NCBI GenBank assembly: GCA_951406725.2
Contig: OX597820.1
Span: 119,474,001 to 119,538,000 of the forward strand
DNA length: 64,000 bases
Direction of reading: 5' to 3'
Source: Octopus vulgaris
Lineage: Eukaryota
In this document: one piece after another, positions 9,404 to 63,977 of the stretch
Layout: each line of letters starts with the position of its first letter
How positions within the stretch are numbered: the stretch's first letter is position 1
The notes under the pieces: model-generated
The model's input: only the letters and a program-made list of their open reading frames with translations
The model's database searches: none
Told to the model about the DNA's origin: nothing
Made by a program: the position numbers and the translations under genes

Positions 9404-10009
9404 TATTCTCTTTTTGCAGCGTCACCATGACTATTGGTGAAGTGAAAGAAACAATGATGAAGGACATAAGTGGTAGTTTAAAATCACTTAACTAACCGTT
9501 CTCTAGTTATTGATTTACACAATTTCCAATGATATGAGGGAGACAGAACGCTGCTAGTCACGTGGCTGAACTACATATAATTACGTAACAATCCCTAATA
9601 TCAAGAACAGATTACCTTTCAGGTCACTGTGTCATATAGTAAATACTAGTAATGTAGGGAAATAAATGAAAAATATATCACTACTTCTTTACAATGCAAT
9701 GGGATTAATATAAATGACTGACATATAATTCTACCCACCATTTTGAAAACTAGTCGCAAGCATTTGTAAGATTTCTGACGGGTTTAGCTTATTGGTAACA
9801 AAACGATCCACTGGAAAGACATTCCGGATATTCTCAACTCTGTTACATGTTCACAAAAATGAACTTGAAAGGAAGGAATCTACTCCCTCTAGATGTAAGT
9901 TTGTTTCTGTAATGTTGATGTACGTATAGCTGTAAGAGGAAATATTAATGAGAAATTGATCAGTTATTCGTTAGTTATAACTGGAAACCACATTCTGAGG
10001 AATTATATA

Positions 10010-10164
10010 CATTATTTACATTATTTACACTTGACGGATATTTATCCTCATCTTGTTTGTTGTTAACACAACGCTTCGGCTGATATATCCTCCAGCCTTC
10101 ATCAGGTGTTTTGGGGAAATTTGGAACCTGTGTTCTCATTCCTAAGGTATGTTATTATTATTTA

Positions 10165-10207
<43 letters not shown>

Positions 10208-10320
10208 ACTCGGAATCTTGGAGTTAGTAGCCCGCGTTCTTAACCACCACGCCATATGTCCGTGCGCAATTATGGAGTGAATTTTAGGGTTTATAAATCT
10301 AATATTTTCCTATCCTTTCA
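10010..10320 (-). mobile_element. Composite element: tRNA-like head + (AAT)n + minimal type I hammerhead motif + (TGTAAATAA) tail
   Basis: Minus strand: TATGGCGTGGTGGTTAAGAACGCGGGCTACTAACTCCAAGATTCCGAGT-(AAT)n-...AACAC-CTGATGA-A-GGCTG..CAGCC-GAAGC-GTT-GTGTT. Confidence 0.7.
10066..10110 (-). ncRNA. Minimal type I hammerhead ribozyme motif (GAAA box mutated to GAAG in this copy)
   Basis: Stem I AACAC/GTGTT, core CUGAUGA, stem II GGCTG/CAGCC, near-palindromic short helix III. Confidence 0.7.
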
Positions 10321-10521
10321 CTTTGTAGCCTAGGTCTATATATTCTTAATTCCAGTTCAGTCATCAGTATTACAGGTTACATGTAAGTGAATCGAGGACG
10401 GAGTCACTACCCGCTCGTTCGAAATGTCAGACATAACTTCTGATGTCAGACATAAGTCTGACATAAGTCTGATGCCTTATATAAAAAAAAAAACGAAACA
10501 GATAATATCTAAGATAAACTA

Positions 10522-10688
10522 GGCGCAGGAGTGGCTGTGTGGTAAGTAGCTTGCTAACCAACCACATGGTTCCGGGTTCAGTCCCACTGCGTGGCACCTT
10601 GGGTAAGTGTCTTCTACTATAGCCTCGGGCCGACCGAAGCCTTGTGGATTTGGTAGACGGAAACTGAAAGAAGCCCGTCGTATATATG

Positions 10689-10724
<36 letters not shown>

Positions 10725-10947
10725 CGTGTATGTTTGTGTGTCTGTGTTTGTCCCCCTAGCATTGCTTGACAACCGATGCTGGTGTGTTTACGTCCCCGTC
10801 ACTTAGCGGTTCGGCAAAAGATACCGATAGAATAAGTACTGGGCTTACAAAAAAGAATAAGTCCCGGGGTCGACTTATTCGATTAAAGGCGGTGCTCCAG
10901 CATGGCTGCAGTCAAATGACTGAAACAAGTAAAAGAGTAAAAGAGTA
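10522..10947 (+). mobile_element. SINE family A, full length
   Basis: GGCGCAGGAGTGGCTGTGTGG head through (TAAAAGAG)n tail. Confidence 0.95.
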
Positions 10948-12854: not shown

Positions 12855-15023
12855 GACAGACGTGTTGTTTTTTGCTCCTGCAAATGTCACGTGTTTGAAC
12901 GTGAAATGTTGAACTTTTGACTCGGCGACATGTAAGACGTTCTGTATTTTTAGAAGCATAGTGAAGTTTATTGCTTGCTTAATGTTATTTAGCAGTTAAC
13001 GTTATCTAGCATTAATATTTTTTTGCGGGTAATAGACTTCACTTTACTTCAGATATATTTCTCTGCCTGTTGTCGTGTCTAAGGTCTCACTTTTTAGTGA
13101 GAATTGTGCTTTTTGAGGAGGTGTAGCCCCTGCGCAAAAATTAATTTGTTTGCTTGTGTTTTACTACTTCGCAAGAAAATTATAAAAATAAGCCACTATT
13201 GGATTACCTTTCGGACCCATTTTTGTGGAGGTTGTGTTGCAGTTGCGGCGTTCCAGGTTCAACCCAGGCCGGGAGTACCGCAAGGCCAGAATATTTTTGT
13301 TGTGTTTTTTCTGTTTATTAACTTTCTTTTGAACTTCATTTATTGCGACTTTCCGTTAACTTCTTCCCTTCTGTTGTGCTTTCTCCTTTTTGTTTTTTCA
13401 AAAATCTATCAAATTTTATTTGGACTTTTGAACTTTTTCTTCCTGCTTTTGAGTTTAATTTGAATATATTTAAAAAAAAAAACATGGCAATGAAAAATAA
13501 CAAAATTTTGGAGTGGGAAATCATACCACCTAAAAAGTGGTTAAAAGACCGTGAAGATGGGACGGTGGTGTTGAGAACCTACTCCAAGGCACTTGACACC
13601 ATCGCCCTATTCGAAAAGACGGCAATTGAAAAGGAGTTGGAAGAGTATTTGCCAACAATTAAATTCATTTCCAGGGGTGTCAAATATGCAACGGTGTGGT
13701 TGCTATTTGACACCCCTGAAGAGGCTTGCAAATTTGCTAGCAAACCCTTGGAGGGTAAGGAAATCTTATTCCTGCCCACGTACAAAAAAAAGAAATTGAT
13801 GAAAGCTTGGATCTGCGGACTGCCACCCGACATAGAACCCGAGTGGATAGAGGAGACTATCCGCCGGGGTCTGGGTGACAGCGAAACTAAGCTCCTCAAT
13901 GTAAAAGTTCTTCCTGCGGCTGCTTGGGTTGGGTCAAAAGCAATTTTGACCCTGTGGACCCAATCAGCCAATCTGGTTCTTCCAGATTTTTTGAAAATGG
14001 CCGGGTGCAGGTACCCGGTGATGCTTGAGGGTCGCCCCCCTAAGTGTCATCGGTGCTTGGAGTCCGGCCACATAAAGAAGAACTGTCCTCGGGAACAAAA
14101 TAGGATCCCGGAACATTTAAGTAAAACCCCTCTAGAAGAGGGAACGATAACGGCCGAGAAAGCAATGGACTCCTCAAACAGAGGCCGAAAGAGGAAGGTG
14201 AGCAACAATGGGTGCTCACCAAAGGATAATAGGGATGAGGAGAGGAAGGCGAATCTTCCAGCCACGGAGGAGACGCACCCTCCCTCAGTTGAAAAGGGAA
14301 AAAAAAGAAAAAGAGGAAGAAAAACGGGACATTACCGGCTGTCAGTGTATACCGGAATGTCGCGGAACTACGTCGGTTGGGGTTGTGCCACCGACAAGAG
14401 AAGGAATACCGTTGGCGGAAACTGTGCCGCCAACGAAAGAACTGAATGTATTGGTCCTCTTCTATAGAGGAGGAGAAATTGAAAAAGTGATGGAAGAGCA
14501 CTACAAGGGAGCAACTTTAGCCTTCACACAGGACCCCGAATGGCCTCCGCAGGTAGCTGTGGAGGCCGTGGCGTTCGACGTGACGCTAGGGCTAAAGGAG
14601 CTCAATGAAGATTATAACTTGGTCCCGGGTGACGCGAACTCGGAACTTGACTACGTTCTGAGGGAGGCGTGGTTGATAGTGGAGGGCGCGGGCACAAGCT
14701 ATTTCGAGGACGATATGTATTATTAGTAATGGACTTAAGTCCAAAAATTGAAAAATTGTAAGAGGATTAATACCTCGTTTTGTATTAATAATGGACTGCT
14801 AAGTCCAAAAATTGGAAAAATTGTAAGAGGTTTAATACCTCGTTTTGTGTTTATCTTTTTAAAAAGAACAATGTTTTAGAGAAGCAAAAGTCGGCGGGCG
14901 CTTTCTGTCTTCTCCCATCCTTATCATCCTTCTTTCATTATCATTCACCTCATTAATGTCCTCGTCCAGCCCGCAAAGCTAACTTAATCTGTGTACTGCC
15001 TTTATGGCAAATGTTTTGAAATA
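12855..15023 (+). mobile_element. ORF1-only non-autonomous non-LTR retrotransposon (half-LINE/HAL1-like, Tx1-type ORF1)
   Basis: 17-bp TSD (2 mismatches); ~630-bp 5'UTR, one gag-like ORF, ~300-bp 3'UTR ending in AATAAA; no RT or EN. Confidence 0.82.
13484..14726 (+). CDS. Tx1/L1-type ORF1 RNA-binding protein: putative RRM region + CCHC zinc knuckle + acidic C-terminus; one +1 frameshift in the A-run near 14299-14306
   Basis: AAACATGG start; WICGLPPDI and EGRPPK-CHRCLESGHIKKNC (CX2CX4HX4C, 14045-14086); removing one A joins ORF 13343-14467 to ORF 14208-14726, giving 413 aa. Confidence 0.8.
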
Positions 15024-16237: not shown

Positions 16238-16646
16238 TATTTCTTTATTGCCTACAAGGGTCTAAACATAGAGGGGACAAACAAGGACAGACAAACGGAT
16301 TAAGTAGATTACATCGACCCCAGTGCGAAACTGCTACTTTATTTATCGACCCCGAAAGGATGTAAGGCAAAGACGACCTCGGCGGAATTTGAACTCAGTA
16401 CGTAATGACAGCCGAAATACCTATTTCTTTACTACCCACAAGGGGCTAAACAAAGAGAAGACAAACAAGAACAGACAAAGGGATTAAGTCGATTACATCG
16501 ACCCCAGTGCAAAACTGCTACTTTAATTATCGACCCCGAAAGGATGAAAGGCAAAGTCGACCTCGGCGGAATTTGAACTCAGAACGTAATGACAGACGAA
16601 ATGCCACTAAGCATTTCGCCCGGCGCGCTAACGTGTCTGTCAGCTC
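16238..16646 (-). mobile_element. SINE family B dimer (one head, two bodies)
   Basis: Junction AAAGAAATA|GGTATTTCG on the minus strand at 16422/16421. Confidence 0.92.
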
Positions 16647-17198: not shown

Positions 17199-17505
<307 letters not shown>

Positions 17506-31446: not shown

Positions 31447-32073
31447 AGGCAGCTAGCTGGCAGAAACATTAGCGCACCAGGCGACGTTACGTTGTGAGTT
31501 CAAATTCCGCCGATGTCAACTTTGCCTTTCATCCTTTCGGGGTCGATTAAATAAGTACCAGTTACGCACTGGGTCGATAAAATCGACTTTGCTTTTAATC
31601 CTTTCGGGGTCGATAAATTAAGTACCAATTACGAACTGGGGTCGATGTGATCGACTTAATACCTATGTTTGTCCTTGTTTGTCCCCTCAATGTTTAGCCC
31701 CTTGTGGGTAATAAAAAAGTAGGTATTTCGTCTGCCGCTACATTCTGAGTTCAAATTCCGCCCAGGTCAACTTTGCCTTTCAATATTTCGGTGTCGATTA
31801 AATAAGTACCAGTTACGCACTGGGGTCGATATATCGACTTAATCCGTTTGTCTGTCCTTGTTTGTTCCCTCTGTGTTTAGCCCCTTGTGCGTAGTAAAGA
31901 AATAGGTATTTGGTCTGTCTTTACGTTCTGGGTTCAAATTCCAGCGAGGTCGACTTTGATTCTTATCCTCACCGGGTCGATGAATTAATTGCCAGTTGCG
32001 TACTGGGGTTGATCTTATCGATTTTTTGCGTCCCCGAGAATTTTGAGCCTTGTGGCCAGAGTAGAAAAGAATA
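31447..32073 (+). mobile_element. SINE family B trimer
   Basis: Junctions tail|GGTATTT at 31721/31722 and 31904/31905; unit 1 has a duplicated central domain; unit 3 is diverged with another tail. Confidence 0.92.
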
Positions 32074-39698: not shown

Positions 39699-40730
39699 TC
39701 CCGACCCTACCATCACCAAACTAGAAAGCATTATCTTCCGCTTCTTGTGGAAAGGATGCGTCCCGATGGTCAGGCGATCCATTTGCTGTCAACACCCGTT
39801 AAAAGGAGGGCTGGGTATGCCATGGTTGATGATGCGCAGACATGCGCTGAGACTGCGACATCTCCGGCGACATCTATGTAGACGACGGTGAACAGGTGTG
39901 GTCGTCGTTTGTGAGGCACGCGTTCCCGCAGCTCGTCTCCATGACCGAACTGCAGTCGTGGATCAAAAAGAGGCCGAGGAAGGGCGAATGGCACCGCAAG
40001 TGTCGCGTTGCTCTCAAGCAACTCTGCTGTCCCGGGTCGACCTGGAGTGACTTCAACACAACCAAAGCATTCTATAAGGGATTAGTGGAGGGGAGGTACG
40101 ACGACGATCTTGGGGCAAACCTGGGCGTCGACGAAGAATACCTGACCCGCCTGTTTGAAACGACTTTCGAGCCGGGAACTATGGACAACTTCCAGAGATC
40201 CCTGGCCTGGCGGTGCTACCGAGAAGCGCTACCCGTTCGGGATAAGCTCTATAGGCATGGCTCGAGAAACACGGGGCCGACCTGCCCGAGATGCGGGCAG
40301 AGCGACGAAACCGCTCTGCATGCAATCGTGCAGTGTCCAACAATTTCCGACCTGTGGGCTTATGTCGAACAACTGCTGTCACGTGTGGGACGAGTCGGTT
40401 TATTAGCCGAGTCTATCGTCAATATTGTCACGCCTCCTTCCTTCAAACCGGAAGGAAGAGCTATTTTCATCATCCTTGTGGCTATGGCGAAAGAATGTAT
40501 CTGGTGGACGCGTCTGAAAGGTTTGGAGACAAACACTTTCCTCTCTGGTCAACCTCTCATCAACTTCCTCAAGTATCACTTGAAAAAGGAAAGTGAGAGT
40601 AGAGAGGCAAGTTTTGTATAGTGAATGTTTTAAAAAAAGATGGGTGAATTTAGCAAGGATGGCACGCATGAATTTCGAAGCGACCTTGAACATAATCCTA
40701 TGAACCCGGAAATTGAAAACAGCGGGTTAC
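39699..40730 (+). mobile_element. 5'-truncated Tx1-clade LINE ORF2 C-terminal region (post-RT + zf-RVT), frameshifted
   Basis: IIFRFLWKG..VRRSICCQHPLKGGLGMP; FQRSLAWRCYREALPVRDKL..CPRCGQSDETALHAIVQC (ORF 39896-40621). Confidence 0.9.
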
Positions 40731-53686: not shown

Positions 53687-54256
53687 AGGCGAGGGGTGGG
53701 GAGCTGGCAGAAACGCTGGCACGCCGGGCGAAATGCTTAGCGGCATTTCGTCTGCCGTTACGTTGTGAGTTCAAATTCCACCGAGGTCGACTTTGCCTTT
53801 CATCCTTTCAGGGTCGATAAATTAAGTACCAGTTACGCACTGGGGTCGATGTAATCGACTTAATACCTATGTCTGTCCTTGTTTGTCCCCTCTGTGTTTG
53901 GCCCCTTGTGGGTAATAAAGAAATAGGTATTTCGTCTGCCGTTACGTTCTGAGTTCAAATTCCGCCGAGGTCGACTTTGCCTTTCATCCTTTCGGGGTCG
54001 ATAAATTAAGTACCAGCTACGCACTGGGGTCGATGTAATTGACTTAATCCGTTTGTCTGTCCTTGTTTGTCCCCTCTGTGTTTAGCCCTTTGTGGGTAGC
54101 AAAGAAATAGGTATTCGTCTGTCCTTACCTTCTGAGTTCAAATTCCGCCGAGGCTGACTTTCATTTTCATCCTTTGGAGGCCAGCAAATTAAGTACCAGT
54201 TGCGTACTAGGGTCGATCTAATCGACTGCCCCCTCCTCATAAGTTTCGGGTCTTCT
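53687..54256 (+). mobile_element. SINE family B trimer
   Basis: Junctions AAAGAAATA|GGTATT at 53925/53926 and 54109/54110; unit 3 is diverged with another tail. Confidence 0.93.
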
Positions 54257-63846: not shown

Positions 63847-63964
63847 GCTTACGGCCATATCACGTTGAAAGCACCGGTTCTCGTCCGATCACCGAAGTGA
63901 AGTAACGCCAAGCCTAGCCAGTACTTAGGCGGGTGACCGGTTGGGAGACCTAAGCGCACTAAGC
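63847..63964 (+). pseudogene. 5S rRNA pseudogene / orphon
   Basis: GCTTACGGCCATATCACGTTGAAAGCACCGGTTCTCGTCCGATCACCGAAGT..AGTACTT..GGGTGACC..TGGGA..TAAGC; 118 nt; 3' half diverged; no oligo-T terminator. Confidence 0.88.
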
Positions 63965-63977
63965 GTAACACATTGCT

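Follow-up and report, generated by a model that had tools for sequence, protein, structure and literature searches.

Penelope-like elements (PLEs) are described with pseudo-LTRs (pLTRs) in inverted or partial-tandem arrangement and with a one-sided tail, and an additional zinc finger in the linker between reverse transcriptase (RT) and endonuclease is found in Neptune and Nematis, according to the accessible text of PMC8557442. Reverse transcription of PAc, the Poseidon_Ac element of the green anole (Frangieh et al. 2024, PMC11167929), starts at two internal sites within the first codons of the ORF, and the tail is situated between them. The PAc hammerhead overlaps the ORF start; according to the available part of that report it requires the protein for cutting, and insertion in vitro does not depend on it. 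Minimal hammerheads of PLEs occur mostly as dispersed single motifs, with opposite-strand pairs 100-700 bp apart, and the accessible text of PMC4209133 expects them to act as dimers with low activity. As to promoters, the available text of PMC10886601 regards coding retroelements as beyond the reach of Pol III.

We examined a 64,000-nt stretch of the Octopus vulgaris genome (the window), in which an original prediction, made from the letters alone, had proposed a separate Pol III-driven and self-cleaving repeat. The parts that it named, a tRNA-like head with a truncated B box, an (AAT)n tract and a minimal type I hammerhead, were all found on the minus strand (Table 1). The insertion itself is almost certainly a 5'-truncated pLTR copy of an ORF-bearing retroelement of Penelope/Poseidon type and not a separate ribozyme element. 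What had been taken for an upstream flank (10319-10268) proved to be the end of the element's ORF and a spacer, and the supposed repeat tail of TGTAAATAA units is coding sequence of an element that extends to 9996. The proposed link to Penelope held; the cassette is the pLTR of the coding PLE itself. In the window copy, 48 codons from the ATG remain open. Inspection of the insertion flanks showed neither an adjacent inverted arm nor a target-site duplication.

Table 1. Parts of the element copy in the window (positions are those of the window).
Feature	Position	Strand	Basis or remark
Whole insertion, ORF end and one pLTR	9996..10319	-	Aligned to coding copy L042, and family structure
Last codons of RT/endonuclease ORF and TAA stop	10291..10319	-	Identical ORF end in L006, L010 and L031-L060
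Spacer, stop codon to pLTR start	10268..10290	-	Exact 20-mer present 843 times genome-wide
pLTR 5' boundary, small palindrome	10258..10267	-	GCCCACGGGC in most copies, two changes in the window copy
tRNA-like head	10207..10261	-	Aligned with host tRNA genes; strict A+B pattern fails in the window copy
A box TGGCGTGGTGG	10254-10244	-	Within the tRNA-like head
B box, broken after GAGTT	10211-10207	-	About 20 nt lost in the window copy; intact GAGTTCGATTCC in many others
(AAT)n/(AAC)n tract	10151..10206	-	5' of the start codon; length varies among copies
First 48 codons of ORF, ATG at 10139	9996..10139	-	Holds the hammerhead and the 9-nt TGTAAATAA repeats
Minimal type I hammerhead fold	10065..10110	-	Stem I of 5 bp, extra A before stem II, loopless helix III
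Stem I	AACAC 10110-10106 / GTGTT 10069-10065	-	Hammerhead in the window copy
GAAGC-GTT	10077-10070	-	GAAGC in place of GAAAC in the window copy
TGTAAATAA repeats, 9 nt	10029-10003	-	Coding sequence of the ORF start
3' end region	9996..10029	-	Beyond the short end, stopping inside the optional PLE tail of about 35 nt

Other repeats lie in the same window. At 10520-10945 on the plus strand, 200 nt from the element, there is another repeat, with a tRNA head of its own and a (TG)/(TA) tract in its middle, which we take to resemble an octopus SINE family, and between the two a short imperfect palindrome with TCAGAC/GTCTGA repeats occupies positions 10440-10467. Tandem arrays of a 183-184-nt unit, apparently SINE-like and with 2.0-2.6 copies each, were seen at 16238-16602, 31586-32021 and 53745-54227. 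Two open frames on the plus strand are presumably LINE-like: one of 381 codons (13322-14467) has a CCHC knuckle, and one of 256 codons (39851-40621) is similar to the end of a LINE ORF2. A 5S rRNA copy at 63847-63965 on the plus strand scored 78 bits and had several pairs broken.

The coding element was characterized from copies elsewhere in the genome. In an alignment made with MAFFT, the majority of 38 copies was open for 835 codons, with the ATG just 5' of the hammerhead; the first 150 nt of this majority had low coverage and included two minority letters. None of the single copies fetched had a fully intact ORF, the longest open stretch being 569 codons. The unit reads head, (AAT)n, ATG, hammerhead, tail, rest of the 835-codon ORF, stop, 23-nt spacer and next head. 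Among 30 loci chosen by their ORF end, BLAST placed the head after that end in 26 and fragments of it in 2 more, the remaining 2 being interrupted by unrelated DNA. In L006, a decayed frame with RT and endonuclease ends about 40 nt 5' of the tRNA-like head. At the other side of the unit, an uninterrupted reading frame links hammerhead and TGTAAATAA repeats to the beginning of the RT ORF in two copies (L183 and L195), and in L195 the head start is flanked by unrelated sequence in 5' and by the ORF in 3'. Three further copies (L202, L211 and L216) carry a pLTR on both sides of the ORF.

The ORF encodes an RT of PLE type, with YVDD and GLAMG motifs and an RVT_1 match at E 4e-9. Its C-terminus (YSIPC-SC..YKGET..R..EH..H..H..EA in alignment A1) was assigned by motif to the GIY-YIG endonucleases with a CCHH motif; the Pfam GIY-YIG model gave no score on a family copy and E 0.23 on the homolog P0001. 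This homolog, of 847 aa and 54% identical to the family ORF, retains the residues encoded by the hammerhead core and has an N-terminus similar to the first codons of the ORF. A first metagenome scan with P0001 returned no matches, and a search of solved structures found none that matched. The extra zinc finger between RT and endonuclease is not present in alignment A1 and is present in control family C. By its motifs, its domain layout and the missing linker zinc finger, the element appears to fall with the Penelope/Poseidon PLEs.

Two more PLE families were noticed in passing. One (L271-L276, e.g. G000:C8:57974500-57980800) is young: its copies are nearly identical, have open frames of 760-1214 codons and carry pLTRs on both sides. 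It has a zinc finger in the linker, which makes its layout Neptune-like, and a hammerhead-like motif of its own that ends in GAAACGTT. The other (L221-L240) is older and A-rich, with 75-80% identity among copies, a majority frame open for 631 codons and ends in (TA)n tracts. Both families served as controls for runs of four T (T4).

The family is abundant in the 2.8-Gb host genome. At least 4,703 genomic candidates were counted for the hammerhead part, and the best 40 of them are 93-100% identical. Exact CpG-free 20-mers were counted 11,849 times for the 3' side of the hammerhead, 5,148 times for the head, 843 times for a site 59 nt 5' of the head site and 575 times for a site a further 361 nt into the ORF, and 20-mer controls with reversed pattern had 0 matches. 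Scaled by the exact-match rates seen in retrieved copies, these counts correspond, in the same order, to about 32,000, 18,000, 1,800 and 1,000 arms, figures that are rough and probably low. Copy number drops about tenfold immediately 5' of the A box, from which it follows that about nine tenths of the copies end at the 5' edge of the head.

The arrangement of these arms was analysed in two sets of loci. The head-anchored set consisted of 89 loci, taken in genome order from 986 exact matches to a head 31-mer, one duplicate having been removed; the hammerhead-anchored set consisted of 24 loci, obtained from 30 matches by merging six pairs. Head and hammerhead did go together, as had been predicted: the hammerhead part was found within 800 nt downstream of the head in 69 of the 89 head-anchored loci, and a head in 19 of the 24 hammerhead-anchored ones. 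An inverted arm was also frequent (upstream in 59/89 and present in 19/24), and ORF or spacer lay upstream of the head in 11/89 and ORF in 0/24. The tandem copies that the original prediction suggested looking for were rare, mostly giving way to inverted pairs: a direct tandem core was present at 1/89 head-anchored loci, and one partial direct duplication was seen among the 24 others. Circular RNA is unsupported because direct tandems are this rare. Among 46 two-arm loci, 6 of which were uninformative, the PLE tail of about 35 nt was carried by exactly one arm in 38 of 40 pairs, and copies have two 3' ends, at reference positions of about 140-159 and 180-190. Inverted pairs with a one-sided tail agree with what PMC8557442 describes for PLEs. 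Snap-back synthesis as the sole source of the inverted pairs was rejected, since 33 of 52 adjacent inverted arms stop before the 5' end of the head. Foreign repeats sit inside the (AAT)n tract of the pLTR in L008, L017, L034, L049 and L051, the same repeat being found in the last three. In L008 and L017 the insert is a LINE-like 3' end, possibly from a microsatellite-targeting R4/Dong element as we would guess.

Do the short copies form a lineage of their own? We compared 161 short with 92 long arms at all non-CpG variants reaching a frequency of at least 10%. Every such variant was silent, a D/E or similar change, or contained within a 3- or 9-nt deletion. Each of them occurred in short and long arms alike, and frame-breaking lineage variants particular to short copies were absent among them. 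Divergence was 4.4% in short and 4.9% in long arms, indicating the same age. An independent tRNA-derived SINE was rejected as the source of the short copies, variants and age being common to both classes; a small hidden lineage is possible. The short copies are best explained as the output of coding masters, by way of RNAs that begin at the head and are primed within the first pLTR.

The same observations weigh on the proposal that the cassette is an independent, non-autonomous retrozyme or SM-alpha-like SINE, driven by Pol III, self-cleaving to circular RNA and borrowing the Penelope machinery. Such an element would account for the co-occurrence of head and hammerhead, and most copies are indeed short and non-coding, through truncation; SM-alpha offers a precedent for Pol III together with a hammerhead in the accessible text of PMC6765202. 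It is contradicted by the identical cassette fixed in coding copies, by a hammerhead that is ORF sequence, by the scarcity of direct tandems and by the lack of shared frame-breaking variants. The position of the hammerhead in the ORF and the variant comparison also speak against a separate retrozyme that would be merely Penelope-dependent. Structure has largely refuted this reading, and we regard it as very improbable.

The hammerhead of the window copy has a CTGATGA core with one extra A and a stem II, GGCTGG/TCAGCC, of 6 bp including one G-U; the cut site is predicted from the sequence between 10070 and 10069. A hammerhead descriptor tolerating GAAG matched at this site only in the window. 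With relaxed stems the descriptor gave 0.05 matches per shuffled window (3 in 60 windows), and at the observed stem lengths 0/60 shuffled windows matched. The motif is not due to chance, because it is this rare in shuffles and has thousands of genomic copies at 93-96% identity. Rfam models reported neither a hammerhead nor a tRNA in the window copy or in four other family loci, and the minimum free energy fold of the 66-nt motif was unremarkable (z -1.58). In 129 sampled arms the family majority reads CTGA(T/A)GA-A-stem II-GAAACGTT-GTGTT, and the core was fully intact in 36 of them. Both GAAACGTT and an intact B box, which the original prediction expected of a genomic consensus, are present in the family majority. 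A GAAG core occurred in 0/129 sampled arms, so that the change seen in the window copy, silent in the frame of the ORF, is a rare one. Judging from hammerhead mutagenesis, GAAG would be expected to cripple cleavage. Having lost the B box and one core adenosine, the window copy is probably inert, as had been anticipated.

The hammerhead lies 3' of the ATG, inside the ORF, and cleavage would therefore take the start codon off the message. We consider the chances about even that it cleaves as a dimer or with the help of the protein. A 3-nt deletion at the cleavage triplet recurs in about 12 of 135 short and 12 of 73 long arms; it preserves the frame and would abolish the cut site, through slippage or as the mark of a ribozyme-less sub-lineage. 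As a foreign control we used metagenomic PLE relatives, 80 loci giving 48 usable ORF stretches. The descriptor matched 4 of the 80 loci on the sense strand and 4 on the antisense strand, from which no covariation support was drawn. In the window, a loose pattern also picked out hammerhead-core-like strings at 17281 (+), 29354 (+) and reverse-strand offset 38879 (-), none of which satisfies the stem I/II descriptor; the string at 17281 is like the motif of the young second PLE family.

In the majority head, both boxes, A and B, are intact and spaced as in a tRNA. The strict A+B pattern was passed by 32 of the 89 head-anchored loci and failed by the window copy. Aligned with 13 host tRNA genes sampled for 7 amino acids, the head showed 51-65% aligned identity and z values of 2.3-7.0 against shuffles, the two top-scoring matches being Arg tRNA genes (z 7.0 and 6.6). 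ARAGORN reported no tRNA in the window or in 9 loci with heads; it found none either in the 50 of 80 foreign loci scanned, a result to be read knowing that the program misses this family's own head too. No A/B-box head was seen within 500 nt past the ORF stretch in the 48 foreign PLE loci, many of whose stretches stop before the ORF end, so that both scans tell little about how widespread the head is.

The 5' boundary of the pLTR lay 0-28 nt before the anchor in 78 of the 89 loci, with a mode at -20/-21, 6 bases 5' of the tRNA-like sequence. The ends scatter over about 25 nt and do not fall on one base, and the boundary persists in 59 loci without a head-to-head palindrome. The small boundary palindrome sits at the same distance, 6 nt 5' of the tRNA-like sequence. 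This coincidence would be expected if the head were a passenger, that is, a tRNA pseudogene or the head of a SINE captured by an element that is transcribed by Pol II or by host read-through, with the small hairpin setting the 5' boundary by self-priming or RT stalling. Rotifer Penelope pLTRs are reported to have palindromic 5' junctions and putative Pol II motifs, and since palindromes and TATA/Inr-like promoters belong to ordinary PLEs, a sharp boundary need not imply Pol III (accessible text of PMC3846280). A passenger does not sit well, however, with a majority that keeps its A and B boxes intact at tRNA spacing, nor with a boundary that holds 6 nt from the tRNA-like end also where the head-to-head palindrome is lacking. 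Overall, we judge a passenger head rather unlikely. That RNA starts at the head seems to us probable. From its boxes and spacing, a tRNA-type (type 2) Pol III promoter appears to open the pLTR, and we somewhat favour Pol III as the transcribing enzyme.

Pol III terminates at runs of four or more T and normally makes short non-coding RNAs only. Not a single T4 run was present in the 2.8-kb sense strand of the family majority. The expected numbers were 4.9 by base shuffle (P 0.006), 2.9 by synonymous shuffle (P 0.02-0.025), 4.8-4.9 by a third-position null (P 0.003) and 2.9 by a first-order Markov model (P 0.057). Two other PLE families of the same genome had 6 T4 runs per ORF, for 6.9-7.5 and 7.1-11.8 expected; control family C was slightly under one null (P 0.03). 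The 48 foreign PLE ORFs contained 186 T4 runs against 162-164 expected, that is no depletion, and none of the 25 with an expectation of at least 2.5 was free of T4, while 7 of the 48 stretches, short or T-poor, were also T4-free. Natural single copies of the family (37 segments, not independent of each other, 29.5 kb) had 10 T4 runs versus 44-76 expected. G4 runs are likewise missing from the 2.8-kb majority (P 0.03-0.29). A passenger head does not predict T4 depletion. The absence of T4 is suggestive of Pol III and not decisive, the family being one evolutionary sample.

Pol III might also give short head RNAs alone, the solo pLTR acting as a built-in SINE, with the protein made from a Pol II read-through RNA. 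About ten short copies per ORF-linked copy would be in keeping with this, and Pol III products are usually short in the accessible text of PMC10886601. The 11 of 89 copies that extend 5' of the head, and the window copy with them, point to templates begun upstream or in the previous tandem unit, but they fit equally well with priming in the second pLTR on one long RNA. The short copies, moreover, have no lineage of their own, and the ORF holds nothing to stop Pol III. We think such a division of labour unlikely. The opposite possibility, that Pol III also makes ORF-length RNA, we consider less likely than not; a coding RNA of this kind would have to be translated uncapped, which counts against it.

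RNA-seq reads were available from three unstranded runs of a related organism, all of one study, about 6% of the reads being used. They cover all parts of the element. As for copies within host transcripts, 66-71% of the aligned reads continue into unlike sequence, which a passenger head would also lead one to expect. Loose ends of the reads coincide with both 3' ends of the copies and with the inverted junction at -21. On L042, no position with many read starts or ends was listed, the predicted start and cut site included, for these unstranded reads of a multi-copy family in another organism; on L279, the few pile-ups of read ends were all at its own deletions or at low depth. Among the joints listed from the three unstranded runs, whose libraries are poorly suited to circles, go-back joints lay at the tail and none at the cut site; this gives circles no support and speaks only weakly against an independent retrozyme. 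The runs yielded no signal as to strand, start or cleavage.

The explanation that we retain, with a probability of about 0.75, is a coding PLE whose pLTR carries a Pol III start and whose reverse transcription starts internally. Transcription would start about 13 nt 5' of the A box. The element protein would nick AT-rich DNA, and the RT would prime internally at two positions of the ORF, about 130 and 165 nt from its start, as in PAc (PMC11167929); by this analogy we consider internal priming very probable. The two priming sites would give rise to the two 3' ends and to the one-armed tail. Priming of the head-started RNA in the first pLTR would produce a head-to-tail copy of about 300 nt, the SINE-like majority of about 90%, and priming in the second pLTR the ORF-linked copies, such as that of the window. 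The hammerhead would cut solely as a dimer or with protein help. A more ambitious version is possible, though we would not put it at even odds: an autonomous coding retrotransposon transcribed end to end by Pol III, with a tRNA promoter captured in its pLTR, a 2.5-kb ORF purged of oligo-T, self-made SINE-like copies of 300 nt and a hammerhead that would switch the RNA between message and template.

The transcription and translation of PLEs are largely open questions, and a tRNA promoter joined to a terminator-free ORF makes the role of Pol III testable with a short natural fragment. The family also illustrates how SINE-like repeats can arise where no separate SINE lineage exists. It calls for caution in genomes of this kind, where apparent matches to tRNA-SINEs or hammerheads, some tens of thousands in number, are the ends of one coding element.

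A PLE with a tRNA-type promoter was not found in the open-access literature, in the parts available to us; the family may already have an entry in Repbase, Dfam or SINEBase. The accessible texts of PMC6962438, PMC13282606, PMC8967140, PMC11481361, PMC7229834 and PMC7761336 mention no such promoter on a PLE. The closest described elements are PAc and Pen2a of Adineta, which, in the available texts (PMC11167929, PMC3846280), likewise have a single ORF with RT and C-terminal GIY-YIG-type endonuclease and no linker zinc finger. They share with the octopus family the overlap of the pLTR with the ORF start and of the hammerhead with the first codons, an optional one-arm tail of 30-40 nt, an inverted 5'-truncated partner and solo pLTRs. 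Neither tRNA-like A/B boxes nor Pol III transcription are described for them in those texts, the promoter being unnamed or TATA/Inr-like. Unlike PAc and Pen2a, the octopus family has its ATG 5' of the hammerhead core, and its solo copies begin at a fixed tRNA-like head.

The hammerhead itself is the one described in animal PLEs by Cervera and De la Pena (2014, PMC4209133), with the same short helix I, unpaired nucleotide before stem II and loopless palindromic helix III; the word tRNA is absent from the accessible text of that report. Metazoan non-LTR retrozymes likewise carry a type I hammerhead in short animal repeats, which are tandem, non-coding and circle-accumulating as described in the available texts (PMC7229834, PMC7761336), three features none of which was found in the present family, as far as, for circles, the RNA-seq joints listed go. 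The repeats SM-alpha and Sj-alpha of Schistosoma combine the same two parts, a tRNA-related Pol III promoter and a hammerhead, in high copy number. As far as the accessible texts go (PMC6765202, PMC2770079), these repeats do not code for protein, are often arranged in tandem, carry canonical hammerheads and have no known coding master, whereas here the cassette is the repeat of a coding element and copies are inverted, not tandem. The TRIMp3 elements Cassandra, Helenus and Ajax (Kojima 2024, PMC10886601) also have a Pol III promoter derived from a small RNA in their terminal repeat; they are non-autonomous LTR elements whose coding partners are argued to need Pol II in the available text, while in the octopus family the promoter lies in the repeat of the coding element and in another class of retroelements. 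Hammerhead, tail and inverted pairs are already known for PLEs, and the unusual part of this family is the putative tRNA-type promoter in the repeat of a coding PLE.
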